Part shown: positions 3,694 to 38,554 of the stretch, piece after piece | How positions within the stretch are numbered: the stretch's first letter is position 1 | Layout of the letters: each line of letters opens with the position of its first letter | Virus record (IMG/VR): IMGVR_UViG_3300014208_000023 | Span: 64,001-128,000 of that record | DNA from: a virus | Lineage: Duplodnaviria; Caudoviricetes | Strand: one strand, 5' to 3' | DNA length: 64,000 bases | Translations under genes and position numbers: made by a program | Notes under the pieces: generated by a model | What the model was told of the DNA's origin: nothing | Seen by the model: the letters and a program-made list of their open reading frames with translations, nothing else | Database searches by the model: none

Positions 3694-4323
3694 ATGCAAC
3701 ACCAACTACTAGACATATTCCAGTTCGATAATGTAGATCCAGGACTGACTCCAAAGTATTACTCCGCCGATAATAAGAAACACGACATTCTAGTTATGAA
3801 CGGAGATGGTTCATTTCAAAAAGGAAAGCTTGGAGTAACACCTGACACTGGTATTCAGATTCCTCTCTTTCCTATGAGCGAACCCTGGAAACTATCTCAC
3901 AAGACTCCTCAGGGAATGCAATCACTACTTGAAACCTTCATTAGTTCTTTTCTTGGTCAGATAGAGCCTATAATGATAGACTCAATATTAGAGATTAAGA
4001 GCTACATTAACAATAACGGCCATATAGTAGCTGGAACTGCCATTAGGAATGCTGAGGGTATGGAACAGATATGTCGTGGCTACACCAATATCTATGAGCT
4101 CGTTAATAAGGCAGAGGCTAGCAATACCATTAATGACAGAAGATGTGTCTTTCTTAAGTCTATGGACCCCTATACAATAATGATTTGCCCGGAACCAGAA
4201 GAAACCGGGATATTCAGCTATATGGGCCATGTTCAACCAGGAACCAATAATGTTACTAATAGAGAAATTGGCTTCTTTTTATTACCGAAAGATATTAAAG
4301 TATTTAAACTCCAGGTAGCGTGA
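3694..4323 (+). CDS. hypothetical protein, possible miniature major-capsid paralog
   Basis: Shares P-x-Y, GxG, IPLF and ICPEP..G blocks with 7389..7991. Confidence 0.6.
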   Translation: MQHQLLDIFQFDNVDPGLTPKYYSADNKKHDILVMNGDGSFQKGKLGVTPDTGIQIPLFPMSEPWKLSHKTPQGMQSLLETFISSFLGQIEPIMIDSILEIKSYINNNGHIVAGTAIRNAEGMEQICRGYTNIYELVNKAEASNTINDRRCVFLKSMDPYTIMICPEPEETGIFSYMGHVQPGTNNVTNREIGFFLLPKDIKVFKLQVA

Positions 4324-5026
4324 GTTGTCTTGGATCTGGAATAGGCATTAGGTTAAGTTTCTGCTTAATCTTCTGAACTTGATCTTGCCAAAAAACGATA
4401 CCCTTCTCTATTTCATTTTGAGTAAGCTCTCTGGTGTTATCCTCATTAAAAATTGGCTTCTTAAGAGACAAAGCCTGGCGATGTTCTAAAAGCTTCTGTT
4501 CTGCTTCCTTAAGAGAGAATTTGAGATAAAGAGTTCTATTATGCTCCTTCTTATCGCTTGGAGATAGAAGATTAACCCTATTATATTCGAAATGGTCAGA
4601 AGGCTCATAGGTATATCCCAAAGACTCACCATACTTAATAGCCTCGGCCTTAAGAAGAGATCCAAAATTAAAACGCCGATAATTAGGATCGACGAATAAA
4701 TCTACCATAAACAAAGGATCGGGCTTATCTGTTTCCTTTCCTAATAGAGCCCATCCAACGATCTTGGGCTTATTGCTCTTACCTTCTATAGTTAAAACTA
4801 CGGCAGAAAAGGAATAATCGAACTTATGGCCATCATTGGAAGAATCTCTCAGCCTTGAGATGGCTATATCCATATCCGATCCAGACCCCTTACCATTAGA
4901 AAGGGCGTGAAGTCTAGGCAGTATGACCTTAGGAATCTCTATATAGTAATGAAGCTTATGCTTAGGGGCGAATAGGTTAGTTTGCTGGGATAGCCTGAGA
5001 AAAGTATCTGCTAGTTTATTAAGCAT
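4304..5026 (-). CDS. GNAT acetyltransferase-domain protein with LxxLAxxF leader
   Basis: LFVDPNYRRFNFGSLL resembles GNAT motif A. Confidence 0.6.
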   Translation of the reverse strand: MLNKLADTFLRLSQQTNLFAPKHKLHYYIEIPKVILPRLHALSNGKGSGSDMDIAISRLRDSSNDGHKFDYSFSAVVLTIEGKSNKPKIVGWALLGKETDKPDPLFMVDLFVDPNYRRFNFGSLLKAEAIKYGESLGYTYEPSDHFEYNRVNLLSPSDKKEHNRTLYLKFSLKEAEQKLLEHRQALSLKKPIFNEDNTRELTQNEIEKGIVFWQDQVQKIKQKLNLMPIPDPRQLTLPGV

Positions 5027-5041
5027 TTTTATTAAGCATTT

Positions 5042-5674
5042 TTATTTGGTTATAACTTTTCTGCTCTTACCCGGCCCAACTATAACTAGTATATCACCCA
5101 TCATTGTTTGCTTAAGATTAACGAACAGATCCTTTATTCTCCAATGAGTTTCGTGCTTGGTATCATTATGCATTACCGGGAAAGACTTAGTATAATTAGA
5201 TAGTATCTTCTTGATTTCATTATAATCCGCGGAAAGAACATCAGTGATTGAAATATCGTAATCTCCATTGGTTTCCGTAAGATCGTTAATCTCTGAAGGA
5301 GCATAATCTATTAACAATGACCTAATATCTTCTATTACCTTCCTGCTTCTTATGAAAGGATCCTGGGGGTCTCTTTTAGGCGGCGGAACCAGAGAAAGAT
5401 GCCTCGGCTTATCATCGGCATCCATATCATCAACATCATTTTCAATAGCCTCAAGCTTATCATAATACTTCGGATCCTCGGTAAGATGATCCATAGCTAT
5501 TTCAAGCTGCATATGAGGATTATTGGTGTGCTCGGATTCTATCTTCTGACCCTTAAGTAGTGAGTGGCTATCGAACTCGGATGGGTCTCTCTTATCTGCT
5601 AAGCCACCAGGAATCTTATCTTTCCAAGATAGAGTCTCCAATTCAAAAAGAGTTGCTAGTGTAAATAGTCTCAT
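5042..5674 (-). CDS. DUF5661-like protein with LxxLAxxF leader
   Basis: DKIPGGLAD...EHT...IAMDHLTEDPKYYDKL, recalled as DUF5661. Confidence 0.65.
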   Translation of the reverse strand: MRLFTLATLFELETLSWKDKIPGGLADKRDPSEFDSHSLLKGQKIESEHTNNPHMQLEIAMDHLTEDPKYYDKLEAIENDVDDMDADDKPRHLSLVPPPKRDPQDPFIRSRKVIEDIRSLLIDYAPSEINDLTETNGDYDISITDVLSADYNEIKKILSNYTKSFPVMHNDTKHETHWRIKDLFVNLKQTMMGDILVIVGPGKSRKVITK

Positions 5675-6141
5675 AGCGAAGTTGTTTCCTTATGTTTCTT
5701 GGATTCGGAATGAGAAGTAGTTATATGAACCTTAATCTCTTTATTGGCCATAACCAGAGAAATGGCGTGATCTGGGTAATAGAATACCATCTTCTCTCCG
5801 GTATCTATCTTATGTTTTGTATTGAAGGTAGATTGGATAAACTGGGCTAATTTGCGATAAAGATGAAAGGAATTGGCGGAAGCGGTAATGATTGAAAACT
5901 GGTAATCAAACCGGCCTTGCTTGTGTAGCTTGGAAACATCATCTCCAAAGTTACGATCTATTATTTGATAAGCAAAAGTATAGATTGAGTTTATTATAGC
6001 CTTTGTCTCCGGGAACTTCGGTAATATGGCCGTAGGAGATTTTTCAGTCTCTGGGAACCTTTCCGTAGTTGCGGGTTGATCCTTGTTCTCCGCTTCCTTA
6101 GCGAAGGATTCTGCCAGAGCAATAAGATCCATAATCTTCAT
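5671..6141 (-). CDS. hypothetical protein with LxxLAxxF leader
   Basis: Coupled to 5042..5674; TATAAT upstream. Confidence 0.7.
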   Translation of the reverse strand: MKIMDLIALAESFAKEAENKDQPATTERFPETEKSPTAILPKFPETKAIINSIYTFAYQIIDRNFGDDVSKLHKQGRFDYQFSIITASANSFHLYRKLAQFIQSTFNTKHKIDTGEKMVFYYPDHAISLVMANKEIKVHITTSHSESKKHKETTSL

Positions 6142-6250
6142 ATAGATATGCTAAATTATAATCAATCCTGACAATCATTTAACAACCTATTGATTCCTGT
6201 TATAATAGCAGCCAGAAAGAACAATCCAATGGAGATAAAGATTAATATAT

Positions 6251-6472
6251 TCATAGTGTAGTTATATCGGGAAATCTAGTCCAAAGCCAATCTTTATCCC
6301 AAGTTTCTATTGAGCTATGGTCAGTGAATGAAGTATCGATAGACCAATCATTCTTTGTTTCAACATGTCCAGTGCCGGCTTCGTATTGAAAGCGACCAAG
6401 TATAGACGGCCTGAGGATTATTATATTGGCCCTCTTATATATTAAATGTCGGGGATCGGTTTTAATCCACAT
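6251..6472 (-). CDS. small hypothetical protein
   Basis: GAGG SD; ATG start. Confidence 0.6.
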   Translation of the reverse strand: MWIKTDPRHLIYKRANIIILRPSILGRFQYEAGTGHVETKNDWSIDTSFTDHSSIETWDKDWLWTRFPDITTL

Positions 6473-6558
6473 TATCTTCTTTCCTCTCTTGAGATATATC
6501 TAATCAGCAAACCAATGGCTATCATAATACATAGTCCGGCAACCTCTCCAATACTCAT
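6472..6558 (-). CDS. 28-aa single-pass membrane peptide
   Basis: MSIGEVAGLCIMIAIGLLIRYISREERR; stop overlaps next start. Confidence 0.45.
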   Translation of the reverse strand: MSIGEVAGLCIMIAIGLLIRYISREERR

Positions 6559-6745
6559 AAATCAGTCTATATCATAGGTCTTTCTAGTTTGAATTCAGAA
6601 GAGATTATGATTAGATTGAGGGGAATGGCAAAGAGGTTATAGTCTAATTGTAGGCTTTATACTGTCAGGGTCTGGAGGGCATATAAAATGGGGTCCGATC
6701 GGAAATCTACAACGGTAATGTCCGTATTCAGCGGTATCTATCAGA

Positions 6746-7309
6746 TCACTTATAATCTTCAAGCTTAATGTTCTTAAGCTTTCCTACAACATCCTCAAGC
6801 TGGCCAACCCTATCCTTATCCTTGAAGCTGGCCGGCCCTTCATCCGAAGCCTTGCGCGTAAAATCTAAAGTTTTATTAACACGAACATCATATTCATAAT
6901 CATCATTTGGTGGTGCCGTCTTAAGCTTACTATAGCTGGACACATCTTCCTGATGAAGCGTATCGTATTTAAAACTTTCCAAAGTTTCGGCGCCTGATTG
7001 AGTAATGACAAAACGCTCCGGAAACTTGCGTTTAGATGGTACATGTGTTCTCTCGCGTAGTCTGGTCGGATCTCCGAGCCTATTTCTTTCGACATCTTGC
7101 GTAACTCCATGATTCTCTGGAACCAAGTCCAATTCTCCCCAACGCTGTAGTCTTGAGGCAATATTCCATTCTTCATCAGTTAAATCGCTAGTGGCCACAT
7201 ATCCCATTGGACTGTTATTGATTTTATTAAGCAACTTAAGCTCTGCCTTGGGGTCTCTGGTAGATTGGGAAACCACATAAAATTGGTGAGCAAGCTTGTA
7301 TAGGTTCAT
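6746..7309 (-). CDS. hypothetical protein with LxxLAxxF leader
   Basis: MNLYKLAHQFYVVSQ; 187-aa ORF. Confidence 0.7.
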   Translation of the reverse strand: MNLYKLAHQFYVVSQSTRDPKAELKLLNKINNSPMGYVATSDLTDEEWNIASRLQRWGELDLVPENHGVTQDVERNRLGDPTRLRERTHVPSKRKFPERFVITQSGAETLESFKYDTLHQEDVSSYSKLKTAPPNDDYEYDVRVNKTLDFTRKASDEGPASFKDKDRVGQLEDVVGKLKNIKLEDYK

Positions 7310-7388
7310 AGTATAATGCCATTAGAGGAATTGATTATTTGATATTTTTTATGGCCATCATAGTGAGCTTCTTGATATATAAAGAGTT

Positions 7389-7991
7389 ATGCCTGCCGAA
7401 ATTATAGAAATTCTCCATAAGGATATTTTGCCTATAAACCTACCTCCCATTTATGAGATGAGGGATGGTAATGGTAACGCGGCGGGCTTCGAAGGTCTTT
7501 TCTATCGCAGAGGGCTTACTCCAAGAGAGTATAAGTCATTGCCGGGCGAACAACTTGAAGTGCCACTAGTCAATTTAACCAGACCGGCCCATGGCTATGA
7601 GTCATATCTTCCAGAAGTTAAAGATGAAATTGAAACGTTTGTTAATGAATGTGTTTCAATTCTTCCCTATGCTCAATTGAGTATTAAGGAGGCCCTAACT
7701 AGCGCAGACGTTTTCTTTCAGGATAGGGGAACGTTCATAAAACATATCCTATATTCATCCGACCTTACGGAAGAGCTTTCTCCAGTTTTTAGTTATGTCC
7801 TTAAGTCCCAGTGCATAAAGCTTAAAGACAAGAAGCGAACATTGGTTATATTGCCGGAGCCCGTTTGTGCTGGCACCATAGCCATTAAGGAGGCCCTGGC
7901 TAGTTATGGTCCAACTTCTGAACCACTAGACAAAACTAGATTTGGAATGATGATATCCAGTGTGTATTGGTGCGTCAATGAAGTCCCCTAA
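7389..7991 (+). CDS. hypothetical protein, possible miniature major-capsid paralog
   Basis: LPINLPPIYE...GFEG...VPLVNL...VILPEP..G; related to 3694..4323. Confidence 0.6.
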   Translation: MPAEIIEILHKDILPINLPPIYEMRDGNGNAAGFEGLFYRRGLTPREYKSLPGEQLEVPLVNLTRPAHGYESYLPEVKDEIETFVNECVSILPYAQLSIKEALTSADVFFQDRGTFIKHILYSSDLTEELSPVFSYVLKSQCIKLKDKKRTLVILPEPVCAGTIAIKEALASYGPTSEPLDKTRFGMMISSVYWCVNEVP

Positions 7992-8037
7992 TTTTGCAGT
8001 TAAAGAGTTCGTTAAAGAAGTAGGCGCAATAAGGTAG

Positions 8038-8604
8038 TTATTTTTTAACTTTCTCAATATAAGAATGGACCTTACGAATCCAAACCTTAAACTCTCGTAA
8101 CGACATTTTACCCTTGGCCCAATTACAAGTTCGGCAGCAAGGAACAACATTTTTTTCGTTATGGGGCAGCGAATTGTCTTTTCTGTCTAGCCCATTATAT
8201 TTGAATGTTCCGTGTAGGATAGCAAAATCAGATACACCTTCTTTTTTGCACTTAAAAATATTAATTGAATTTGATGACTCTATTCCGCAGTAATGACATT
8301 CTTTTTGAGAAAGCTTAAGGAACTTATCAAATGATAAGTCGCCATCGCTATAGCCGCTTCTATAAATGAATTTGGCAGAGGCAAGCTTGGCGGTAGCTGG
8401 ATCGGAATGTGATTGAGAACAACCGCAAGATCTGCTTGGTCTATCATTTTTTGTGAGACGGTCCTTGGTAAAAATTCTCTTACTGCCACATTCACACTTA
8501 CATAGGTAGGCCAATCTTGCGCGCCCAGAAACTATAACACACTCTTCTTTTTTAAGAACAGTGAGCTTTCCAAATACTTTTCCAATAAAATCATCAACAG
8601 TCAT
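8038..8604 (-). CDS. HNH-type homing endonuclease-like protein
   Basis: GKVFGKLTV..CKCECG N-terminus; CHYCG...NGLDRKDN...NVVPCCRTCN. Confidence 0.75.
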   Translation of the reverse strand: MTVDDFIGKVFGKLTVLKKEECVIVSGRARLAYLCKCECGSKRIFTKDRLTKNDRPSRSCGCSQSHSDPATAKLASAKFIYRSGYSDGDLSFDKFLKLSQKECHYCGIESSNSINIFKCKKEGVSDFAILHGTFKYNGLDRKDNSLPHNEKNVVPCCRTCNWAKGKMSLREFKVWIRKVHSYIEKVKK

Positions 8605-8611
8605 TGATTCC

Positions 8612-8953
8612 TTAAATTAAAATCAGATACTTTTCGATTTGACCAGGCCTCTTGAAAAGTTTAATCATAGTGGATTCGTCGCATTCAAACTCCATTAGGT
8701 TATCGGCTGATGATTCTTGAAATATCACCATAGTTTGGTTCGAACATATAAATTGGCAGCAAATGTTTTTATCGCTTATTTGTTTATAGAGCCTTATATC
8801 CCTAACTTCCGTTTGGTCATCATACCTAATGGTGCATACTAGATCATAGCACTCAATGCAACCAATAGCATTGTTCAAAGGATACTCAATGCCAATTTTT
8901 GATTTGCAGCCTGGGCACTTCTTGAATGTTTTAAGAAACTTATCTACCGTCAT
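8612..8953 (-). CDS. hypothetical Zn-ribbon protein
   Basis: CPGC and CIEC pairs. Confidence 0.6.
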   Translation of the reverse strand: MTVDKFLKTFKKCPGCKSKIGIEYPLNNAIGCIECYDLVCTIRYDDQTEVRDIRLYKQISDKNICCQFICSNQTMVIFQESSADNLMEFECDESTMIKLFKRPGQIEKYLILI

Positions 8954-8990
8954 TGGTGTGGCTTGTTCCCGTGCAATCGCATATACCGGG

Positions 8991-9596
8991 CTACAGCTTT
9001 AAATACTTGGCATCGATTTTTTTATTTGGAGTGACGATAATAAGGTGTGGAACGTCAGAAGCATAGTGAGTTGTATGCGTAACGTCATATCCCTTCCAAA
9101 GCTCAGCTGGCTCCTTAAGCGTATAAGGCATAACCTCGCCTAATGACAGCTCTTTTTGTCTTTTATCAAACTCCTCGTCTGACATATTATCCTTGTAGAT
9201 AGCCAACTCTACTCCAATAAGTTTAGTCTTCGGCTCACCACTCATTAGCTTGGATAGGTTTATAGTTATCGGAATAAGATCTAGCTTATGGATATTGTGT
9301 TTTTTAGTTATCTTGGTCCAATCTGGCAAAGTAAAGAAGGCACTAATTCCTCCAACCAACCCTTTCATTTCTGGATCTTCTAATTTTTCTTCAACTTTTT
9401 TCTTGAAACTTTTGCCGTCATCTGGTCTTGCTAGATTTAAAGCCTTCTTGTCTTTGACCAATTCTTCTGCTGACAAAAGGCCCTTAGTCTTAATGGAATC
9501 TATTGCATTTTTAGGAACAAAAGTAAATAAGGTAATTTCGCTAGCTAGTATATGAAAAGATTGAGATAGTTTTATAAGGCGACTTATATTACTCAT
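8991..9596 (-). CDS. hypothetical protein with LxxL[AS]xxF leader, weak ADP-ribosyltransferase-like pattern
   Basis: TLFTFVPKNAIDSIKTKGLLS resembles the ART/KptA start; start could be 9611. Confidence 0.6.
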   Translation of the reverse strand: MSNISRLIKLSQSFHILASEITLFTFVPKNAIDSIKTKGLLSAEELVKDKKALNLARPDDGKSFKKKVEEKLEDPEMKGLVGGISAFFTLPDWTKITKKHNIHKLDLIPITINLSKLMSGEPKTKLIGVELAIYKDNMSDEEFDKRQKELSLGEVMPYTLKEPAELWKGYDVTHTTHYASDVPHLIIVTPNKKIDAKYLKL

Positions 9597-9664
9597 ATGT
9601 AAATGCGACAAAATCCTTGCGCCTATTATTTTTGCATAAATATGTGGTAATATCGCGATCGGAC

Positions 9665-11188
9665 ATGGAGTTTCTGTATTCTGTGGCGGCTAGTCTTTTT
9701 GAAGGAAAAGATATTCCCGAATGGATTTCGCAGCATCCAGCAATCAAAAACCGTAAAATTAAAAAAGTATTCCCTAGTATTGGTCTTCCCAATTTTAAAG
9801 AAAAAGTAGAATTGCAAGAAGAATCATTTGCACCAGATTACTATACCCCATTTGTTAATGGAGCAATTTCCGGAATAAAACATGAGTTATTAAGAACTAA
9901 CGATATCATATCGGATGCATTTGAAGCTTTTCGTTCGGCCTATCTTTCTGGTGTTACAGACGAAAATGATAGAAATGATATTATAGAAGAAATGAGTGGT
10001 CTCCAAAAAGAAGGCAATATTTTAATAAATATAAACAAATCGTTTAATGACAGTATAGGTGCAGAATGCATTGTTCCTATGCCTGATGGTAGGGTTAAAT
10101 TAATTTTATCCAAAACTTTAAGTGCTAATGGCAAAGATATTGTTAAAGAAGGAACTTCTATATTTAGGGCCTTTAATACTATTAAAGTTCTTGTTGATAA
10201 TTTTTTTAAAAAATGTGGAACTAATAATAAAATGATTGATTTAGATCAAAAAGAATCAATGAAAACGTTTCATAAATTAAATGTTCCGATCGGCAAGCAA
10301 GAAAATTATATATCTTTTTCTTCTAGCGGAGAAGAGGGCGCGTGGGATATTGCCACTATGAGTATGAGGGGGATATCATCTTGCCAATCTTGGGATTCTA
10401 GTGTTGGAAATGGAGAGCATCGTCCATGTATAATAGGAAGTATTGCTAGCAATTATGTAGGAATTATATATCTAACTTCCGGCAAAGATTTTGAAGGCAA
10501 GGGAAGCAAAATGATTCGCCGTTGTATAGTGAGGTTTGGAATAGATATGTCGAAACCTAAAAAAGAACGGCATCCAGTCATTATAGTAGATAAGATGTAT
10601 GATAGCTATCATCCAGTAATAGCTAAATTATTTTTAGAAGCAATTAAAAAAAGATCTGAAGTTCCAGTTTTAGATTTTACTAATAGTGAGGCTAGCACGG
10701 AAAATATTAAATTGCCTGAGCAATATTTGCCAAATATTATAAATCAAAATGAAAAAAATCAACAATTAGCTGGTAAGCCAGGATTTCCAAGCTATCAAGA
10801 CTCGGATTTTGAATATATAAAAAAGCAAAAAAATAATGACAATAAAGATCTTATAAAACAAAATAGAAAATCAGTGCAGGAGATAACTGATAAATTAGTT
10901 ACTTATTTTCACAGCTCGTTTAATTTGTTTGATAAAAGCACCGATACTAGAGAGATATCAGAAGTATTTAATCGCGCCCTCAGTGACTTAATTTTTAAAA
11001 TAACAACCAAAAATGATATTATGTCAAGGCCTTCTTCATTTGTAAAGAAGTATTTTCTTATAAAAGCAAAAAAACTACGATTGAATGGGGTAAGATATGA
11101 TTTTGATAACCATACCTTAAAAGTAATTGATAAGATCATGGGAGATTTTAGAAAATATGTGGGCACTCTATTTACAATAGATGACTGA
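9665..11188 (+). CDS. conserved phage protein with WDIATMSMRGISSCQSW motif
   Basis: Long intact ORF (track start 9617); function unknown. Confidence 0.7.
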   Translation: MEFLYSVAASLFEGKDIPEWISQHPAIKNRKIKKVFPSIGLPNFKEKVELQEESFAPDYYTPFVNGAISGIKHELLRTNDIISDAFEAFRSAYLSGVTDENDRNDIIEEMSGLQKEGNILININKSFNDSIGAECIVPMPDGRVKLILSKTLSANGKDIVKEGTSIFRAFNTIKVLVDNFFKKCGTNNKMIDLDQKESMKTFHKLNVPIGKQENYISFSSSGEEGAWDIATMSMRGISSCQSWDSSVGNGEHRPCIIGSIASNYVGIIYLTSGKDFEGKGSKMIRRCIVRFGIDMSKPKKERHPVIIVDKMYDSYHPVIAKLFLEAIKKRSEVPVLDFTNSEASTENIKLPEQYLPNIINQNEKNQQLAGKPGFPSYQDSDFEYIKKQKNNDNKDLIKQNRKSVQEITDKLVTYFHSSFNLFDKSTDTREISEVFNRALSDLIFKITTKNDIMSRPSSFVKKYFLIKAKKLRLNGVRYDFDNHTLKVIDKIMGDFRKYVGTLFTIDD

Positions 11189-11189
11189 T

Positions 11190-11771
11190 TTATGATACTA
11201 AAAGCTGTTTTTTGATTTTAAGAATGAGTCCTTTTATGTTCTTAAGCCCTAACTCTTTTAGTGGGCCCACGAACGGTAGTTGAAAGTGATTCTTACCATC
11301 AGGGGTATGAGCGAAAAGCTCTTCTTTTTTAAAACTATTCGATAAAATTAAGTGATCAGAACTATGCTTTAGTTCTGCCCGCTCTGATCGCACCTCTATT
11401 GGGCCCATAGTTTCAGAATCACGATCCATCGTTATGTGGGTCGAGTAATACTTAAAGTTTCCGCAATTTATACATGACGACTCTAACTGTATCGTGTCAT
11501 ATGTGTCTGGTGGAGTGGAGGATAGGTGCCGACGAAGAACATGATAAGGAGTAGATAAGATAAACGGCCGATTACTATTTATTATATTTGAGTAATTCAG
11601 CAGTAATTCTAGAGGCTCTTTTTCATCCTCATATACTGTAATGAGGAGGCCATCTTTTGTTTTATCGACGGTTGATGGTATTGATAAGTCAGTATCTATA
11701 ACTAGATTGCCATCGCATATCGGGCAGCAACTATAATGATTAACGAAATTGATAAGTGTTTTTTGTTTCAT
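11190..11771 (-). CDS. hypothetical protein with two CxxC pairs
   Basis: CPIC, CINC; has its own promoter. Confidence 0.65.
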   Translation of the reverse strand: MKQKTLINFVNHYSCCPICDGNLVIDTDLSIPSTVDKTKDGLLITVYEDEKEPLELLLNYSNIINSNRPFILSTPYHVLRRHLSSTPPDTYDTIQLESSCINCGNFKYYSTHITMDRDSETMGPIEVRSERAELKHSSDHLILSNSFKKEELFAHTPDGKNHFQLPFVGPLKELGLKNIKGLILKIKKQLLVS

Positions 11772-11774
11772 GGT

Positions 11775-11808
11775 AACGATAAGTTAGCCACTACTTATCG
11801 TTTGTCAA
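11775..11808 (-). promoter_or_regulatory. TTGACA-N16-TAACTT promoter overlapped by a 10-bp inverted repeat (operator-like)
   Basis: AACGATAAGT 11775-11784 / ACTTATCGTT 11793-11802. Confidence 0.6.
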
Positions 11809-11865
11809 GCCCAAAGATAGTTGTCGAGAAAGATGGTATAGAGAGTATATATTGATGGCTACTGA

Positions 11866-12330
11866 TTAGCGGCCTACAGTAAAGTTATCACTTTTTGGAT
11901 TCACGAATGTCGAAGTATCTCTTAATCCCTTGACATCTGCAATAGGTCTGGTTACTTTTTGTGCCGGCTGATTAACTGGCTGTTCTGAAGGTTTCTTTCC
12001 TTCGTATTTGGAGGCTTCATCTAAAATTCTTGAATAGAGAGCATCTGGGCTGGAATTTGGTCCTGGAAATTTAGTTTTAAATGCTTGTATCGCATCCTTC
12101 GTTTCCTTACCAAGAAGGCCATCAGCACCGTGTTTTGGAAGAGGAAATCCTAAACTCATAAGGGCAAATTGAACTGATTTTGGTATAGCTGCCGACACTG
12201 GAGCGGCAGGAGCTTTGGCAGGTATCGCCCCACCAAAAGGCCCTTTATCAGAAATGCCTCTAATCTGCTCTATAGACGGAACTTGGGAAGCCTTTTCAAA
12301 CGCAACAGCAAATTTATATAGACCCTTCAT
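11866..12330 (-). CDS. peptidoglycan-binding domain protein with LxxFAxxF leader
   Basis: VQFALMSLGF...ADGLLGKETKDAIQAF matches PG_binding_1. Confidence 0.7.
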   Translation of the reverse strand: MKGLYKFAVAFEKASQVPSIEQIRGISDKGPFGGAIPAKAPAAPVSAAIPKSVQFALMSLGFPLPKHGADGLLGKETKDAIQAFKTKFPGPNSSPDALYSRILDEASKYEGKKPSEQPVNQPAQKVTRPIADVKGLRDTSTFVNPKSDNFTVGR

Positions 12331-12385
12331 AAAATTATCCTTTTCAGATAAATATCTCATTATTACTACATAGAAAACTAATAAA

Positions 12386-20060: not shown

Positions 20061-20479
20061 AAAGAGTTGTAATTGAATCGCCATATGCAGGTGAAGTAGA
20101 AGAGAATGTTGCATATGCTAAACGTTGTGTAGGAGATTGTTTAAAGCGTGGGGAATCGCCTTATGCATCTCATTTGTTTTTTACGCAACCCGGAATGCTA
20201 GATGATTTGAAACCAGAAGAAAGAGAGCTTGGAATATTGGCCGGTTTTGCTTGGGGAAAAGCTGCCGATACAATAGTTTTCTATATTGATCGCGGAATAT
20301 CTGGAGGAATGCTTCGTGGAGTTACATCGGCACTTGAAAATAATAAAAACATAGAAGTCCGCTCTCTTGAGCGCAAAGTAACACAAGAAGACATTGGCAA
20401 ATTAGGACTTATTACTTATTTCAATAGAATTGAGGATGTGGCGCGAGAACAAACAGAGTTGGACTTACTTATTAGCTAG
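20057..20479 (+). CDS. nucleoside 2-deoxyribosyltransferase-fold phage protein
   Basis: VVIESPYAG...ENVAYA...PYASHL. Confidence 0.6.
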   Translation: MKRVVIESPYAGEVEENVAYAKRCVGDCLKRGESPYASHLFFTQPGMLDDLKPEERELGILAGFAWGKAADTIVFYIDRGISGGMLRGVTSALENNKNIEVRSLERKVTQEDIGKLGLITYFNRIEDVAREQTELDLLIS

Positions 20480-20979
20480 TAGCCCGGCTCGTCTCTTTTA
20501 ATTTCCGGCTCATCTAACTCTATAGTTTCTTTTGGTGCTCCTGGTGGCCCAATATAATAATGACGATACGCTGCAAAATTAACTGCATCACGAAGAATTT
20601 CTAAATTAGTTTCAAGTATATCTATGGATGTTGAGGAGATGTTTTGCACTCCCTTCTTCTTTAGAACTTCTGCTGGATCTAGCCCTAATCCTTTTAATTT
20701 TTCTTTGCTTAACGTAAGAGCGGCCAATAGTGATTCTATTGTTTTAAGAGCAGACGCATCTCCATAGGCAGGCGCTTTTTTATAGGCAGCAATACCATCG
20801 AATATCTTTTTGGCTACGGCCGGCGAATAAAGATAGGTTCCGGTCCCTCTAAACGCAGAAAGAAGCGTATTTGACCACAAATCAATTTCTTTTTTCTGTG
20901 CCGGATTCATTTTTGTATTTAGCTGCTGAGCTAATTTAGCAAATATTTCACAGGCTAAAGATAGTTTTGGCGTATTCAT
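20476..20979 (-). CDS. hypothetical protein with degenerate leader motif
   Basis: KLSLACEIFAKLAQQ; TATAAT 8 nt before ATG. Confidence 0.7.
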   Translation of the reverse strand: MNTPKLSLACEIFAKLAQQLNTKMNPAQKKEIDLWSNTLLSAFRGTGTYLYSPAVAKKIFDGIAAYKKAPAYGDASALKTIESLLAALTLSKEKLKGLGLDPAEVLKKKGVQNISSTSIDILETNLEILRDAVNFAAYRHYYIGPPGAPKETIELDEPEIKRDEPGY

Positions 20980-22199: not shown

Positions 22200-22980
22200 A
22201 GCCCCCCTGCTCACTTACCAAATAACATAAACTATCATCTAACAATATATCGAATAAATCTACGGGCTTATCATTTAATGTGGCATTTCTTAAGCAAATC
22301 CGTATTGAGGATGAATAATCCTGATAGTCTATTGAGTGGCTCGTACAGTTTGGTTGAGGCCCTTGGATTGCGACCCCAGTGTTTGGATTAAACCACCCAT
22401 ATATACCTACGTTATTTTTATGAGTAAGTAACGCCTTATCTATCACAGTATCTTTTTTTGTTCCAGTCAATAATGTGAATGGTCTTCCCGCAATCTGCTT
22501 ATTAATTTCCGCATTATGATTGACCAATATTTGCGTGCCCATCATATTTAAGCTGGCCCCCATTGGTCTTGGGTTTAATTTAAGATCGGCCAATCTCCAA
22601 ATATCGTCACACATCTTTTTTGTCGGCATAGTGCAGTTGATTTGATCTAACAGTCTCTTGGCCGATCTGCCGTTTAAAGAAATCCGTAAATAATCATCAT
22701 TACTTCCAACGCTCAACACGTCTGGAGACACATAGTATTTCAGTAAATTACCCTGGGCCAAAACGGTGACTGGAGTAAAGTTCCTTACTGAATCAGGAAT
22801 ATTGCCCGAAAGTATTTCTTTAATAAAGTAATCATCTCTAGGCTGGCCGGAAAGACCTAATAGTGTCTGGCCTATTTGCGACCCTGTTTTGGCGCCGCCT
22901 TCTCTTTCTGGTAGATTTATCATTGATTTGCCTAATGTTGGAGATACTAACTCATTAACTTCAGGAATATAATTATTCAT
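22174..22980 (-). CDS. conserved hypothetical protein
   Basis: 268-aa intact ORF with TGTKKD, IYGW, H...YQDYS motifs. Confidence 0.7.
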   Translation of the reverse strand: MNNYIPEVNELVSPTLGKSMINLPEREGGAKTGSQIGQTLLGLSGQPRDDYFIKEILSGNIPDSVRNFTPVTVLAQGNLLKYYVSPDVLSVGSNDDYLRISLNGRSAKRLLDQINCTMPTKKMCDDIWRLADLKLNPRPMGASLNMMGTQILVNHNAEINKQIAGRPFTLLTGTKKDTVIDKALLTHKNNVGIYGWFNPNTGVAIQGPQPNCTSHSIDYQDYSSSIRICLRNATLNDKPVDLFDILLDDSLCYLVSEQGGYDARSIYS

Positions 22981-23786
22981 ACTAACAATACGTTCATTGC
23001 TTCAGCAACGAAAAAGTCTGCGCTATTTGAATCTAAAAGATAATCGCTAGATACCCAGGCGAACCCAGGCTTACCATTAATTGTCTTGCCCCAATCTCCC
23101 CAAGAGTTTAAGAGGCAAAATTCTTTCTTGCCACCATTATCACGAACGCCAACTAAAACCGTTGCGTGAAGACCGATGGTTTCAGATTTGGAAGGTGGAG
23201 TAAAAACAATATTGTCACCCATGTAGCTTTGGAACTTTGAGCTAACTGCGGTTCCCCATACTACTGGTAGCCCAGCCCTAATATTCATTTCAACATCCTC
23301 AAGTCTTTTTTGTCCAGAGCTGGATATTTGATGAAAGCTGCTTACCGTATTATCATTGGCCTGTTTGTATGCTAGGATAGATGGGGTATCAGCAAATCTT
23401 TTTGGATCCGTTTTCCACATACTTAACGAGCATGTGCCAAGAGACTCTAAGGAGTAGAAGTTGTTGTGTATGTAGCTGCCGTCATCCATTCCAATGTTAT
23501 TGTCGGCAACTCTCGCGTTGTAGTAAGTAAACATAGGGCTAAGAGGTTCAAAATTGGCCAGATCGCTGCTATTGGCTTTTACAATTTCTAGTGCAGTTGT
23601 GGTAGCGAATGCCGCACAAGCACTTAATGATCCTTGATTTTTAGTGGGAACTTTATCGCTTGGAATTACGTAGTGGTCTGCCGTATTAGCAGCCGCAGCC
23701 CGTTGTAGAGCGGCTGTTTGATTGAAGTCTTTAACATTTACGCTTCCGAAATTATTATTCGAAGGTTTATATCCAAATTTATTCAT
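22977..23786 (-). CDS. papain-like C1 cysteine peptidase
   Basis: QGSLSACAAFA (Cys), GLHAT (His), LNSWG (Asn). Confidence 0.85.
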   Translation of the reverse strand: MNKFGYKPSNNNFGSVNVKDFNQTAALQRAAAANTADHYVIPSDKVPTKNQGSLSACAAFATTTALEIVKANSSDLANFEPLSPMFTYYNARVADNNIGMDDGSYIHNNFYSLESLGTCSLSMWKTDPKRFADTPSILAYKQANDNTVSSFHQISSSGQKRLEDVEMNIRAGLPVVWGTAVSSKFQSYMGDNIVFTPPSKSETIGLHATVLVGVRDNGGKKEFCLLNSWGDWGKTINGKPGFAWVSSDYLLDSNSADFFVAEAMNVLLV

Positions 23787-30569: not shown

Positions 30570-30579
30570 GAGATATAAT

Positions 30580-31261: not shown

Positions 31262-31277
31262 GCACTCGAAGGTCCAA

Positions 31278-32141: not shown

Positions 32142-32142
32142 A

Positions 32143-33443: not shown

Positions 33444-34327
33444 TCAATATCATATACAACATGGAGACTGCAGATCCAGACGATGCATTTACACTATGTA
33501 TGCTATATAGTCATCCCAAAGTAAATCTTGTTGGGGTTACAATCACTCCAGGATCATTACAGCAAGTCAATCTGGTAGAAGATCTTTTAGCGAGACTTGG
33601 AAAAAATATTCCTATTGGGGTGAAAAATTTTAATCATCCTAAGTCATGTGTTTCAGAGTTTCATTATAAATGGCTTCGTGATTATCTGTCGCTAAAAGAA
33701 TACTATGAAGCTCCTCCTGATGGAGGAGATCTAATCGCCGCCGCCATCAAGCAACATGGAGATACTAAAATTGTGTCTGGAGCAGGCCTAGGCTGTGTTG
33801 CTCAATATCTTACAAAATACAATACAGAACTTGATGAGGTAGTTATTCAGGGTGGCTTTGCTGGCGACAATGTTGTTCCAGAAGAATTGCGTCTAGCCAA
33901 GTTCAATGGCAAGACTACATGTCCCACATTCAACCTTAATGCCGATGTTGAGGCAGCGAAACTAATTGCATCTACCAAGCAAATTAAGAAGAAGCTATTT
34001 GTTTCCAAGAATGTTTGCCACGGTATCATATACGATAATGAAATGCACGAACGCATTAAACCTCATCGTCATAACAATGTTGGGTTAGACTTGTTGGTTG
34101 ATGGTATGGATTTTTATCTCAATAAAAATAAGCACGGAAAAGCTTTTCACGATCCTCTAGCGGCCTGTGTTGCTATTGATCAAAGCATTGTTACGTTTAA
34201 AGAAGTTGAGATATATAGGGAACGAGGCGAGTGGGGAGCTAGGCTGGCTGACGGCACTAATACGTTTATTAGTATTGCCGTTGATAGGCCGGCATTTGAA
34301 AACATTCTAATTGGTAAGGGAAGATAA
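33440..34327 (+). CDS. inosine/uridine-preferring nucleoside hydrolase family
   Basis: METADPDD N-terminal motif, IQGG, TFNL, HDPLA. Confidence 0.75.
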   Translation: MINIIYNMETADPDDAFTLCMLYSHPKVNLVGVTITPGSLQQVNLVEDLLARLGKNIPIGVKNFNHPKSCVSEFHYKWLRDYLSLKEYYEAPPDGGDLIAAAIKQHGDTKIVSGAGLGCVAQYLTKYNTELDEVVIQGGFAGDNVVPEELRLAKFNGKTTCPTFNLNADVEAAKLIASTKQIKKKLFVSKNVCHGIIYDNEMHERIKPHRHNNVGLDLLVDGMDFYLNKNKHGKAFHDPLAACVAIDQSIVTFKEVEIYRERGEWGARLADGTNTFISIAVDRPAFENILIGKGR

Positions 34328-34328
34328 A

Positions 34329-34700
34329 ATGATTGAAATATATGACGGGCCAAAACAATATTATCATACAATCAAATCCGGAATAGATTTGAAAGTTGGA
34401 GAAATTGTTCAATTAGCAGTTGAAAATAATAAGATTGTAATAGATAGATCTGACGGCTCCGTGCCATTAGGATACATTTGTAGAATATTTGATGACGGAC
34501 GAGCCTACGTTGAGTTCCAAAGAAGCATGTTAAGAACTGATATGTATGAACCATCAGAACTTTATGCTATAAATGCAAACCTATATGTATCTAACGGACT
34601 ACTTACCACGCGACGGATAGATAACAATAGGCCAGCAATAGCTATAGTTACGAAACCACCAAGCCCAACCGATCCTAACCTTGGCTGTCTTTGGTTCTAA
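34329..34700 (+). CDS. hypothetical protein, capsid cement/decoration-like
   Basis: RTDMYE...NANLYVS.GLLTTR...RPAIAIVTKPP, recalled similarity only. Confidence 0.5.
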   Translation: MIEIYDGPKQYYHTIKSGIDLKVGEIVQLAVENNKIVIDRSDGSVPLGYICRIFDDGRAYVEFQRSMLRTDMYEPSELYAINANLYVSNGLLTTRRIDNNRPAIAIVTKPPSPTDPNLGCLWF

Positions 34701-34702
34701 AA

Positions 34703-35164
34703 ATGAAAAAAATTATTATTAAATGTAATAGCAAAACAGTTGGGGCTATTGATTCTGCAAACTTTACGGAAACTAGGCCGGCTGATTTTTTTGGGCCCGC
34801 AACAATTAACGGATCGGTAGGTCAGATAAAATTCGATAGCATAAACCTATCTAATACATTTATTAGAGATATTGCTAATCATAATGCCCCATTGCAATTA
34901 GAGTTCGAATATAATAACGCCATACATCAAGTAAAGAATGCTTGGGTTTCTAGCTATACAGTAAATGAAGAACCTAATGGCATTATGGTTGTAGAAAATT
35001 TACGATTTGATTGCGAATCAATGTTTGTTATGAACAAAGAGCAAGACGTATCTATGAGCCGCAAAAACGTTGTTCAGGATATAAAAACAGTTGCCGATAA
35101 AGAACTAGAAATGATAAATAAATTCTCGGCTGCCGTATCAAATCATTATAAGGAAAGTAAATGA
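34703..35164 (+). CDS. hypothetical protein, tail-tube-like
   Basis: IIIKCNSKTVGAI...VKNAWVSSY...VVENLRFDCE, recalled similarity only. Confidence 0.5.
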   Translation: MKKIIIKCNSKTVGAIDSANFTETRPADFFGPATINGSVGQIKFDSINLSNTFIRDIANHNAPLQLEFEYNNAIHQVKNAWVSSYTVNEEPNGIMVVENLRFDCESMFVMNKEQDVSMSRKNVVQDIKTVADKELEMINKFSAAVSNHYKESK

Positions 35165-35646
35165 GCTCAAGAGAAGAAATAAGAAAGTTTATGGACACTG
35201 AGCAATCAATAGTTCAAAAGGCTAAGCGGTATAATCAAGATGTAAAATATCTTCTTGATCAACTGTGGCGTGATGAGCATACTCATGCAGAATGTGAGGC
35301 AAGAATGTATTCGTCTGCCAACGTATCAAACACATTGCAAATAGAATTACTCAGCAAAATTATGGATATTGTAAAAAATGAACGATCTGATGTCTTCGAA
35401 TCTATGGGTGATATGGTAAAGTTAGCCGAATCCAGTCACGAATATACTCACGGCCCTTGGGTTCCGGGACCATTTGATCGAACTGCTGACGGATGGCCAA
35501 AAAATGATATGTGCAAGCGATGTGGTTATACTATTGGATCCGAAGAGTATGGGCTTGATGCTCCTCTATGCCTTAAATCTAGTCTGGCTTTTAGTAAAAT
35601 ACTAAAGTTAGTTGTAGAATACTATATGAGACCATCTGCTTGTTAG
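35161..35646 (+). CDS. hypothetical protein
   Basis: Coupled ORF. Confidence 0.6.
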   Translation: MSSREEIRKFMDTEQSIVQKAKRYNQDVKYLLDQLWRDEHTHAECEARMYSSANVSNTLQIELLSKIMDIVKNERSDVFESMGDMVKLAESSHEYTHGPWVPGPFDRTADGWPKNDMCKRCGYTIGSEEYGLDAPLCLKSSLAFSKILKLVVEYYMRPSAC

Positions 35647-35653
35647 GAACAAA

Positions 35654-36046
35654 ATGAACGAAAAAAATAAAAGAGTAGAATTTCCCACATTTGAATGCTA
35701 TTGGTGTAGAGGGGATGTTGGCGATGGGTCGGTGACTCATGATTGCAAAGAGACGCCAAAACTAAATCTTAAAGAAACGCTAGAAATTCTAAAAGATATG
35801 GCTGAAGATAATCCACTTACTGAGGTGGGAAAAATAGCTAAAGAATTTACTAAAGTTTCTTGGATTAAGATGGATGGCGAATCTGACACGTGCCCAACAT
35901 GCAAAATGGCCACCCTTGAACGCTCGCATGGAGTGGTTATGGGACCGTGGGGAGGATCGGTCCGATGCACCACATGTGACTATAAAGATAGTTTTATGGC
36001 CTACGTTGGACGCAAATGCATAATAGTGGAGCCGATGGATAAATAA
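35654..36046 (+). CDS. multi-CxxC Zn-ribbon protein
   Basis: CYWC, CPTC, CTTC. Confidence 0.6.
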   Translation: MNEKNKRVEFPTFECYWCRGDVGDGSVTHDCKETPKLNLKETLEILKDMAEDNPLTEVGKIAKEFTKVSWIKMDGESDTCPTCKMATLERSHGVVMGPWGGSVRCTTCDYKDSFMAYVGRKCIIVEPMDK

Positions 36047-36148
36047 TGATAACACTTACTGTAATAATAATATCATGTATTCTATTTACGACGGCATATG
36101 GAATATGGGCACAAGAAGAAATTAAGAAATTAAGAAGGGCAATAATAA

Positions 36149-36391
36149 ATGAGCGACAAAACAATAGATGAGGTTCTAGATTTTATACAAGAAAAAATAG
36201 ATAATGCTCATGGTCATAAATGGGATGAATATGAAACCCTAATAACCATTAAAGACTATATAGAAAGCCGTAGGCCAGAGCTTACAAAAGAAGAATTAAA
36301 GCAAATGATGCCTAAAGTAACAATTAAGCCAATTGAAAATACTGGCGTATTTTATGATGACTATCCAGAAGAAGAGACCAATAATGAGTGA
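36149..36391 (+). CDS. hypothetical protein
   Basis: Operon context. Confidence 0.55.
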   Translation: MSDKTIDEVLDFIQEKIDNAHGHKWDEYETLITIKDYIESRRPELTKEELKQMMPKVTIKPIENTGVFYDDYPEEETNNE

Positions 36392-36755
36392 TGAAGATTT
36401 CGTCGGTAAAATACCGGCAATACAAAAGTTAGAAGTCCTACCAGCTGACAACACAAACCAAGTAAAACTAAATTGGACCGTTAGAGAGTATATAGGCTGT
36501 GAAGTTTATATGGAAGGCGACCAAGATAAAAAACCAATCACAACGAAGAGCGATATAAAAATTGGAGACCGGCTTGTAGCTTGGGGTTATATAATAGTAG
36601 TTACTGAACTAGATCCTCCTAGCGCCGAAACAACTAGCGGTAGCACTCTAGTCATATTAGAGTTTGATAAAGATGATCGACATTGCTGGGTTGCCGGTGG
36701 AATGATAAACAAGAGAGCTCTTAAGCAGCTCTGCAAAACAACTGTAATGGTATAA
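36384..36755 (+). CDS. hypothetical protein
   Basis: Start MSDEDF overlaps previous stop. Confidence 0.55.
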   Translation: MSDEDFVGKIPAIQKLEVLPADNTNQVKLNWTVREYIGCEVYMEGDQDKKPITTKSDIKIGDRLVAWGYIIVVTELDPPSAETTSGSTLVILEFDKDDRHCWVAGGMINKRALKQLCKTTVMV

Positions 36756-36759
36756 TAAA

Positions 36760-37083
36760 ATGCAAGATGTAATAGACCCTCTTCCACATGGCGCCACTCC
36801 TAGATATGATCTGTCAAAAAATGACATGGTCTTTTACTTAGAAACAATATGTGATTGTCATGGAAAATCATTAGGACAATACGATGGTTGTGAGGCGCTT
36901 CGGCATATAGAATGTCCGCTTCATAAAATTTCTATTGATGAATTATTTAAAATTAGAGAAAAAGTAAGTAATAGTGTGATGGATGGAAAAATATATGCTT
37001 CATGCATTTGTGATGGCGGAAATGAGCGGGGACGAGGCATATTTTTTGTGGCCACAAAAGGAACCATATTGGGATATAAATGA
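36760..37083 (+). CDS. hypothetical protein
   Basis: Coupled to folA. Confidence 0.55.
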   Translation: MQDVIDPLPHGATPRYDLSKNDMVFYLETICDCHGKSLGQYDGCEALRHIECPLHKISIDELFKIREKVSNSVMDGKIYASCICDGGNERGRGIFFVATKGTILGYK

Positions 37084-37571
37084 TAATTAAGATGATAGCT
37101 GCCGTCTCCCAAAATGGAGTAATTGGGTGTGACAATGACATTCCGTGGAAAACAAAATATCCGGAAGACTTCAAATTTTTCCGCCAAATGACTGCCGGAG
37201 GCGAAGTAATTTTTGGACGCAAGACGTTTGAAAGCATAGGAAAGCCTCTGCCGAAAAGAAATAACATAGTTATAACCAGACAAGAAAAGATTGATGGCGT
37301 AACTTGCTTTCCATCACTAGGGGCCTGGCATAGATCGCGGTCTGTAATTCTAGAAGATGTTGCAGTTATCAAATGGATGTGCGGAGGCTCGGAAGTATAT
37401 CGTGAAGGCATGAAATATGCTTCAGAGATTTATCTTACACTAATACCAGAGACTGTTACTGGCAGCAGTCTAGCCCTCTTCCCCTGGATTAACCCTTCGC
37501 TCTTCTCTGTTGCCGAGACCATTGCTATTGAAAATTCCGATCTTAAAGTGGTGAAATATGTTAGGGCCTAG
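37080..37571 (+). CDS. folA: dihydrofolate reductase
   Basis: IAAVSQNGVIG...IPW, GRKTFESIGKPLPKRNNIV, GGSEVY. Confidence 0.92.
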   Translation: MIIKMIAAVSQNGVIGCDNDIPWKTKYPEDFKFFRQMTAGGEVIFGRKTFESIGKPLPKRNNIVITRQEKIDGVTCFPSLGAWHRSRSVILEDVAVIKWMCGGSEVYREGMKYASEIYLTLIPETVTGSSLALFPWINPSLFSVAETIAIENSDLKVVKYVRA

Positions 37572-37595
37572 ATAGCATAATCAACACACAAACGA

Positions 37596-37627
37596 AAAAC
37601 CGTCCCAAAATAAATTGTGACGGTTTT
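37596..37627. terminator. bidirectional terminator between convergent genes
   Basis: AAAACCGTC / GACGGTTTT stem with A and T flanks. Confidence 0.6.
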
Positions 37628-37649
37628 CTTTTATCTAAAGAGCTGATCG

Positions 37650-38120
37650 CTATAGGGTAGTAACGTTTGCAGTTCCCCTAATATTTGCTGGGCGCACTGT
37701 TCCAGCGGCCAAACGTTCTTGAAGCTGAACTGACGGAGATTTACCATACATTGCAGTATAATCGGCAACCAAGGCTGCCTCAATGGCTGCTTTTACCTGA
37801 GGTTTAACCGCAGCCTTAACTATGAAAATAGCTCTTTTAGCTGGAGCATCTACCATTATGTCTATAACAATTTGTCCAGATACATCTTGTGTTGCTTTGG
37901 TAAAATTACTTTCCGGAGTTCCAAGCTTTTTAACAAACTCTGGATGTCCTAACCCAGGGCTTGGAGGACCAAAAAAAGCATCTTGAACTGCCGGTCCAAG
38001 ATTAGATTCCTGTGTTTGTGGGACCTGAGCAAGCTTAACATTTACCTCTTTTTCATTATAGGTATTTTCTAAAAATTGATTAGCCAAGCTTTCAAGTAAT
38101 TTTGTTTTTGATCTCATCAT
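37650..38120 (-). CDS. hypothetical protein with LxxLAxxF leader
   Basis: LLESLANQFLE. Confidence 0.7.
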   Translation of the reverse strand: MMRSKTKLLESLANQFLENTYNEKEVNVKLAQVPQTQESNLGPAVQDAFFGPPSPGLGHPEFVKKLGTPESNFTKATQDVSGQIVIDIMVDAPAKRAIFIVKAAVKPQVKAAIEAALVADYTAMYGKSPSVQLQERLAAGTVRPANIRGTANVTTL

Positions 38121-38140
38121 TTAATTCCCTATTCTTAAGA

Positions 38141-38554
38141 CTATGTGACTGGCGCAGCAAACTCATATACGGCCACATATGGCCCAGGACTTATATTATT
38201 AATAGTTTCTCCAAATTTAGAGAAATAATTTGGAATGCCGGACTTAAGACCGCTCACAATGGCGGCTATGTCACTGGTGGATGCGGTGGAATCTTTTGCC
38301 GGAGTAACATCTACTGACTTTACCTCAACTTCACTTGAGGATTTGACATTAAGCGTTATGGTTAATGCCTTTATTTCTTTTGCCGCGCCTTTTGCGTTAT
38401 TCTCAGCAATCAGTTTTCTAAAATTTGGAATATTATATATCGGCCATGTCGAGGCGTGCTCAATTGTTCCCGTCAAATCAGCATTAACGTTTTGGGCGGT
38501 AATGCGTAGAAATTGACCGGCTAAATTTTCTAGTATGTTTATTTTTGGCATCAT
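38141..38554 (-). CDS. hypothetical protein with LxxLAxxF leader
   Basis: LENLAGQFLRITAQ. Confidence 0.7.
   Translation of the reverse strand: MMPKINILENLAGQFLRITAQNVNADLTGTIEHASTWPIYNIPNFRKLIAENNAKGAAKEIKALTITLNVKSSSEVEVKSVDVTPAKDSTASTSDIAAIVSGLKSGIPNYFSKFGETINNISPGPYVAVYEFAAPVT

Follow-up and report, generated by a model that had tools for sequence, protein, structure and literature searches.

An N-terminal amphipathic helix on unrelated proteins of an uncultured 428-kb phage, a candidate capsid-targeting tag

Introduction

The internal proteins of phage T4 are a diverse set in which only the capsid-targeting sequence (CTS) is conserved, and it is the CTS that places them in the scaffolding core (PMC3012670). 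The N-terminal 30 residues of the P1 protein DarB are sufficient for packaging, also of a foreign reporter, for delivery into the cell (PMC9024508), and in giant phages such as SPN3US (gp245, A-x-E), phiKZ and 201phi2-1, head and ejection proteins have N-terminal propeptides, some of them 20-24 residues long, which end at a recurring protease motif (PMC10052503). Here, we analysed a stretch of 64,000 nucleotides, referred to as the window, which covers bases 64001-128000 of the IMG/VR record IMGVR_UViG_3300014208_000023 (Caudoviricetes) and in which a set of small proteins begins with a similar short leader, referred to as the tag. An earlier reading of the window (the sequence-only reading) had listed nine such proteins, all encoded on the minus strand, and had proposed that the leader is a previously unnamed targeting or processing signal, which loads effectors into the phage head for ejection. 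We show that the tag takes up about 13 residues at the N-terminus, which form an amphipathic helix of two heptads (phi-x-K-phi-[A/S]-x-x-phi-x-[K/R]-phi-[A/S]-Q), and that it is a separable module ahead of unrelated, fast-turning-over small proteins. By analogy with the systems above we propose, with a probability of roughly 45%, that the tag is a lineage-specific capsid-targeting and processing sequence, which would load a changeable set of enzymes into the head.

Results

The motif is tied to protein starts

The virus record is 428,320 bp long, has direct terminal repeats and is rated complete. Our own simple gene call, which the gene for a tagged CheY-type receiver escaped, gave 672 genes; as 578 of these (86%) lie on the minus strand, the common strand of the nine genes was rejected as a clue. 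Across this gene set, the expression L..[LFIM][AS]..F matches 13 times at N-termini and 13 times at internal positions, the latter being about 9 times more numerous. The motif is thus strongly N-terminal and not equally common inside proteins, a possibility that the sequence-only reading had itself raised. Eleven of the 13 N-terminal matches form one family and the remaining two are membrane leaders. When all patterns of the form a..bc..d were counted without bias, L..LA..F came out top for N-terminal enrichment (9 versus 2 internal, p 8e-11).

A profile of the 11 members was then used to scan the genome in six frames (about 860,000 translated residues). All 11 matches of at least 10 bits start no more than 8 residues from the first or a near-first ATG in frame, and apart from the members nothing scored above 8.4 bits. 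This profile was trained on the 11 members themselves, and leave-one-out models were added as a check: against the 661 other proteins, five of the 11 members rank first and eight fall in the top 10, always at the N-terminal position. Three members, the DUF5661, ADP-ribosyltransferase (ART)-like and peptidoglycan (PG)-binding proteins, score poorly when left out; the ART-like and PG-binding orthologues keep the tag. The DUF5661 protein is counted as doubtful because of its score when left out (Table 1) and because its "leader" corresponds to an inner part of a longer homologue: residues 3-79 match residues 173-258 of a 262-aa head-module protein of the related genome G001 (E 6e-17).

All nine N-termini quoted in the sequence-only reading are found at the stated starts of minus-strand genes, with a core whose first residue lies between positions 2 and 9 of the protein, within the first nine residues as described. 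Seven of the nine are good matches, one is degenerate and one doubtful, and the family extends beyond nine, with at least four further carriers elsewhere in the genome (Table 1). The statement that the downstream bodies are unrelated holds, as BLASTP among the members gave no similarity past the tag.

In the aligned tags, one L and the F are invariant and the A is nearly so (consensus x-L-x-K-L-A-x-x-F-x-x-x-S); a fuller spelling of the helix is L-x-K-L-A-x-x-F-x-K-I-S-Q, and its amphipathic stripe covers two turns. The codons at the conserved positions vary, with CTC, CTT, CTA and TTA for leucine and all four alanine codons in use, and the upstream DNA is not in common. Given this variation in the codons for L, A and F, and with no common DNA upstream, we conclude that selection acts on the peptide and not on an RNA or DNA element.

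The tag is a separable module

Megablast with 20 kb of the genome gave no match. Uncultured relatives were found: G001 (354 kb, TerL 53% identical), the fragments G002-G005 and the contigs L051, L052 and L054. The tag is conserved across this clade. In the AlphaFold2 (AF2) model of the ART-like protein (predicted local distance difference test score, pLDDT, 87 overall), residues 2-18 form a helix (pLDDT 60-66) detached from the core, which starts at residue 22 and has a pLDDT above 88. The tag is retained, and its L, [A/S] and F do not vary, in homologues that are 49-96% identical to this protein, whereas an NCBI homologue that is 57% identical starts two residues past the tag position and another has a 145-residue Cys-rich module in its place. 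The PG-binding protein and its orthologue on L051 are 36% identical overall but identical at 14 of 17 residues of the tag, followed by a fully diverged linker. New N-terminal instances of 10-14 bits are found on other proteins on L051, L052 and L054, among them MDTNKILKLAAQFEKQSQ on a 79-aa protein in L054.

In G001, four N-termini, two C-termini and one internal site match [LIM].[KR]-phi-A..[FY], the C-terminal matches being in an M23 peptidase and a small protein. The M23 peptidase has its tag-like helix at the extreme C-terminus, and a CCA-type nucleotidyltransferase of G001 has one near the C-terminus (Table 1), and in this genome the tag may work from either end.

Homologues in G001-G005 exist for just 1 of the 11 proteins with a tag, as compared to 40% of size-matched proteins, which places the tagged genes in the flexible genome. 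In the family of the tag-like gene at genome position 223311, the tag-like start is kept in two of five orthologues (G001 and G004). Positions 3694-12330 of the window are syntenic with L051, with the ligase, the 357-aa and 501-aa genes and the tagged PG-binding and ART-fold genes in common. At the L051 locus, the tagged GNAT, DUF5661, 156-aa and 187-aa genes are missing and other genes are found instead. Judged from this gene content, the region appears to be a hypervariable cargo locus.

These data bear on the idea that the tag has no common function and reflects common descent, exon-like shuffling of an N-terminal helix or simply the ordinary first helix of the respective domains. The DUF5661 "leader", which aligns to an internal helix of a longer homologue, would fit this idea, as would the three members that score poorly when left out, and short helical motifs recur easily. 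On the other hand, L..LA..F is the top N-terminally enriched pattern, the tag is the best-conserved segment of the PG-binding orthologues, its helix is detached in the AF2 model, and it is absent or replaced in distant homologues and recurs on different proteins in relatives. We therefore regard a tag without common function as very improbable.

The tag carriers

Table 1. Tagged and tag-like genes and other features discussed in the text. Positions refer to the window unless a genome position or a contig is given; HMM, hidden Markov model; LOO, leave-one-out result.
Feature	Position	Strand	Product	Tag or motif (position)	Tag HMM (bits)	LOO
Tagged gene 1	4304..5026	-	240 aa; GNAT acetyltransferase domain after the tag (Pfam Acetyltransf_1, E 3.7e-6, residues 86-139)	MLNKLADTFLRLSQQ (4982-5026)	16.8	rank 1
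Doubtful member	5042..5674	-	210 aa; DUF5661 domain (Pfam E 1.9e-8)	MRLFTLATLFELETLS (5627-5674)		-3.2 bits
Tagged gene 3, orphan	5671..6141	-	156 aa; Pro/Thr/Glu-rich linker after the tag	MKIMDLIALAESFAKEAEN (6085-6141)	14.0	rank 5
Tagged gene 4	6746..7309	-	187 aa	MNLYKLAHQFYVVSQS (7262-7309), best tag match	19.3	rank 1
Tagged gene 5	8991..9596	-	201 aa; DarT/Tpt1-like ART fold from residue 22	MSNISRLIKLSQSFHILAS (9537-9596)		
Tagged gene 6	11866..12330	-	154 aa; Pro/Ala linker, PG-binding-like domain	MKGLYKFAVAFEKASQV (12280-12330)		
Degenerate case	20476..20979	-	167 aa; contains the K-x-A-Q tetrapeptide	MNTPKLSLACEIFAKLAQQ (20923-20979), second half of the tag only, F-A-K-L-A-Q	0.5	
Tagged gene 8, orphan	37650..38120	-	156 aa	MMRSKTKLLESLANQFLENTY (38055-38120); K-L-A-Q at residues 29-32	14.4	rank 9
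Tagged gene 9, orphan	38141..38554	-	137 aa	MMPKINILENLAGQFLRITAQ (38492-38554)	14.8	rank 4
Tagged, outside window	genome 13805-14245 (L049:305-745)	-	146 aa; CheY-type receiver (Pfam Response_reg E 4e-11)	MRLEVLASEFLAMSIK		
Tagged, outside window	genome 37701-38090					
Tagged, outside window	genome 186146-186949		among fibre-like genes			
Tagged, outside window	genome 207664-208371		in head module			
Tag-like start	genome 223311-223994					
Tag-like start	genome 204223-204990					
Tag-like helix, G001	L017:6185-7531	+	CCA-type nucleotidyltransferase	KLLELAKQFEKIS, near C-terminus		
Tag-like helix, G001	L021:11308-12039	-	M23 peptidase	IEKIADEYYRITKNI, extreme C-terminus		
Protease-scaffold	genome 218434-221799 (L003:14434-17799)	-	1121-aa fusion	RFEKFAGELKKIAPKA, residues 33-44		
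Portal gene	genome 227626-229500			[T]GATATAT before ATG		
Upstream motif	3394-3672	-		[T]GATATAT before ATG		
Upstream motif	3694-4323	+		[T]GATATAT before ATG		
Upstream motif	7389-7991	+		[T]GATATAT before ATG		
Upstream motif	42326-43537	-		[T]GATATAT before ATG		
Papain-family protease	22977-23786	-	269-aa cysteine protease (Peptidase_C1, E 2e-7)			
Small-protein family, six genes	genome 342136, 372616, 403047, 403498, 404114, 424418	-	75-153 aa	N-terminal S-C-x-x-N-I-K-x-G-D		
GC-rich segment	1-4000		51% GC			

The domain names given in the sequence-only reading are borne out, with the GNAT and DUF5661 domains recovered in Pfam. The PG-binding label has a weak Pfam match (PG_binding_1, E 0.0088, under the Pfam cut-off), and PHROG endolysin families match this protein with E 4e-4. 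For tagged gene 5, the ten best Foldseek matches in the PDB to the AF2 model are all DarT or Tpt1 proteins (top E 3e-3, template modelling, TM, score 0.45) and the ESM Atlas concurs, so that the label "ART-like" stands as a model-based fold assignment. The body of tagged gene 4 is, weakly, winged-helix-like: Atlas structure matches to winged helix-turn-helix families have TM scores of 0.36-0.45, and we treat this as a lead. Pfam and PHROG searches with tagged gene 3 gave no match. No relatives of the tagged gene in the head module were found among viral contigs, and the Atlas gave no usable match to it. Outside the window, a phage-borne and possibly packaged response-regulator receiver is unusual.

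One might also consider that the tag is a recognition leader for a single modifying enzyme, as in ribosomally synthesised and post-translationally modified peptides. Radical-SAM proteins (PF04055) had no match anywhere in the genome, whereas the controls were positive in 14 of 14 genomes, and no enzyme gene is consistently adjacent to the tagged genes, which makes such a leader scarcely credible.

The tag resembles motifs of the head module

The head module, at about 204-241 kb of the genome, encodes TerL, the portal protein and a 1121-aa protease-scaffold fusion, and these three are the only placements that our searches gave in it. The protease domain of the fusion, at about residues 90-350, matches PHROG 18299, "head maturation protease". 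The T4 gp21-type Peptidase_S77 (PF03420) had no match in the genome, nor did Peptidase_S21 (PF00716), for which the control genomes gave no match either.

Several features link the tag to the head, though indirectly. First, the tag terminates in K-x-[A/S]-Q, and K.[AS]Q closes many of the tags. Per 1000 residues, the related K.AQ is found 1.18 times across the head module (35 proteins) and 0.14 times elsewhere, an 8-fold difference, and the first 40 residues of head proteins show a 2.8-fold enrichment in K.A. K-x-A sites kept in every relative include residue 72 of the portal protein, a pair of sites within the scaffold and, near the scaffold C-terminus, a K-[T/E]-A-[G/S]. The latter lies about 35 residues from the C-terminus of the protease-scaffold protein, is conserved in all five relatives and directly precedes a conserved P-Q-V-G. 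Second, the strict two-heptad pattern has only seven matches in the genome, namely four tags, residues 33-44 of the protease-scaffold protein and two others, and in G001, G003 and G004 it matches only the orthologous protease-scaffold N-termini. This helix, F-x-K-[FI]-A-x-x-L-K-x-I-A-P-K-A, is among the best-conserved stretches of the protein. In addition, a protein matching the PHROG entry "internal virion protein with endolysin domain" has a conserved start, [FY]-A-K-[IL]-A-[EQ], in four of five genomes. The tagged or tag-like genes at 186146, 207664 and 223311 are inserted among conserved structural genes, and in G001 the gene that directly follows that of the protease-scaffold protein encodes a DUF5661 domain. 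Complex prediction of a tag fragment with the N-terminal 350 and the C-terminal 200 residues of the protease-scaffold protein gave a score of 0.00, with the partner poorly folded, and weighs neither for nor against an interaction.

The physical character of the helix was considered as well, as N-terminal amphipathic helices can act as membrane anchors or protease-recognition tags. The tag could accordingly serve regulation or localisation in the infected cell and have no part in the virion; it might, for example, mark proteins for degradation, bind to the membrane surface or set the timing. Its moderate to high hydrophobic moment (1.0-2.1 in 10 of 11 tags, as compared to a median of 1.17 for other N-termini) is in keeping with this. 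The stripe is, however, narrow, depends on the specific sequence and always has a small residue at position 5, and the mean hydropathy is about 0, unlike that of general membrane-binding helices. The 1-8 variable residues ahead of the motif speak against recognition of the N-terminal residue, and the protease-scaffold signature and the K-x-A-Q link would be left unexplained. A purely intracellular role thus seems improbable to us.

Other features of the genome

The genome has about 37% GC and 16 tRNA genes. Within the window, positions 1-4000 stand out by their GC content, as compared to 35-39% in the remaining window, and few open reading frames there score as coding. The papain-family protease gene forms a minus-strand island amid a block of plus-strand genes. 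The second-ranking pattern by N-terminal enrichment is S-C-x-x-N-I-K-x-G-D, common to six small minus-strand proteins (Table 1); these look like a paralogous family of small beta-domain proteins and not like carriers of the tag.

An enriched motif, TGATATAT, located 7-9 nt 5' of the ATG marks other genes including the portal gene, and not the tagged genes. In at least 16 genes across the genome, [T]GATATAT stops 7-9 nt short of the ATG and a Shine-Dalgarno sequence is missing. This points to a class of genes that are transcribed from an extended -10-like promoter, with transcripts that are leaderless or nearly so.

Discussion

In the explanation that we prefer, the tag helix would dock the cargo into the assembling prohead core, and it may do so by co-assembly with the similar N-terminal helix of the protease-scaffold protein or by binding to the same site as this helix. 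The head maturation protease would subsequently trim the tag at its closing putative K-x-[A/S] site, and the cargo would stay in the head and enter the host together with the DNA. Proteins proposed to be delivered in this way include the DarT-like ART-fold protein, the GNAT protein, the receiver domain and the PG-binding-like protein. A stronger version, which we consider possible but doubtful, is a head-loading code coupled to the protease and used by a whole clade of groundwater megaphages, in which the two-heptad tag imitates the helix of the protease-scaffold protein, so that the tagged proteins co-assemble into the prohead core, are trimmed at K-x-[A/S] and are injected into the host. Any gene that gains a 13-residue tag would then encode a delivered effector, which would account for how quickly the tagged set turns over, with its DarT-like, GNAT, receiver, winged-helix-like and wall-binding members.

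Several observations weigh against loading into the head. The first-heptad K is absent in 4 of 11 tags, and a single heptad unit is only 1.9-fold enriched at N-termini. K.A occurs 9.8 times per 1000 residues in head proteins with 7.4 expected from composition, and part of the K-x-A signal could come from the Lys/Ala-rich helical composition of these proteins; conservation of K-x-A sites in orthologues is modest (31%, as compared to 16-26% for control tripeptides). Most tagged genes lie outside the structural modules and adjoin the early region, and no common promoter or 5' element was seen upstream of them. Pfam, PHROG and PDB sequence searches of the head-module proteins gave no match to a major capsid protein, a candidate receptor, and in tblastn searches of a phage collection with TerL all matches were below 25% identity, so that there is no close cultured relative. 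Lastly, the C-terminal copies in the M23 peptidase and the CCA-type nucleotidyltransferase of G001 suit a docking helix better than an N-terminal propeptide.

This last point leads to another explanation, namely that the tag docks its carriers, uncut, to a common partner other than the head interior, such as the tail, the baseplate, a fibre, a phage chaperone or adaptor, or a host hub. A short amphipathic helix with an invariant stripe of L, A and F is typical of helix-in-groove docking, and the tagged gene at 186146 sits among fibre-like genes. Yet the K-x-[A/S]-Q ending in common with the head module and the match to the protease-scaffold helix point to the head, and the tagged genes are not linked to any gene for a candidate partner, their neighbours being without informative families. 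We consider a docking partner outside the head interior to be unlikely.

If the tag is indeed a head-loading signal, it provides a sequence-only listing of the proteins injected by an uncultured 428-kb phage. Such injected proteins would be first-strike, counter-defence and takeover tools. It would also suggest that lineage-specific capsid-targeting peptides are general in large phages and not a peculiarity of T4, and a portable tag of 13 residues, together with the protease site that matches it, would be of practical use for bringing foreign proteins into phage heads. To our knowledge, the mode of recognition of such tags is still unclear even for T4, and the resemblance between the tag and the protease-scaffold helix offers a concrete idea of how they are recognised.

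Among the known systems, herpesviruses offer a parallel for the protease. The herpesvirus scaffold has an M site near its C-terminus. Like the protein described here, the assemblin-scaffold is a protease-scaffold fusion with Ala before the candidate cut (M and R sites), and the K-[T/E]-A-[G/S] of the phage protein resembles the M site in its position. Differences are the missing Pfam match to S21, which the controls lack as well, and the Lys at P3, and we know of no herpesvirus that loads cargo via a common N-terminal tag. A parallel for the tag itself is found in the cargo-loading peptides of bacterial microcompartments (BMCs) and encapsulins, short amphipathic helices at either terminus, which are joined by a linker to unrelated enzymes and dock inside the shell. 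A BMC system was excluded, as the genome has no BMC shell gene (PF00936), for which 9 control genomes were positive; the shell would here be a DNA-packaging phage capsid.

Closer to the tag are the signals of other phages. The propeptides of SPN3US and phiKZ belong to another phage lineage and have another cut motif, and no common targeting helix has been reported for them. The P1 DarB signal acts on one protein in the stepwise assembly of the Dar system, as opposed to a motif on many unrelated proteins, and no sequence relation is to be expected. We found no such tag described in the literature on head proteolysis in giant phages or in a jumbo-phage review. The term "previously unnamed" from the sequence-only reading can be kept for the sequence of the tag, whereas the kind of tag is known from T4 and P1.

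The closest comparison is with the T4 CTS (MKTYQEFIAE), which is found on IPI-III and Alt and is removed by gp21. T4 Alt is a CTS-bearing ADP-ribosyltransferase. The CTS is likewise the only peptide common to a diverse set of small proteins, and the tag, like the CTS, ends in a presumed head-protease motif and is carried by genes that lie mostly outside the head cluster, at a variable locus. The tagged set, like the T4 cargo, is diverse, includes enzymes, among them a protein with an ADP-ribosyltransferase fold, and belongs to the flexible genome. The two differ in that there is no sequence similarity between them and in that the tag, with its two heptads and about 13 residues, is longer and has a clear helical character. 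Its putative cleavage site reads K-x-[A/S]-Q as compared to [L/I]-x-E, no S77 protease was detected, and the phage makes its protease as a fusion with the scaffold. The carriers number at least 12 as compared to four, copies at C-termini occur in relatives, and the tag is known here from sequence alone. By this comparison, the tag most likely has a role of the kind that the CTS has in T4, while it stands outside the T4 system.

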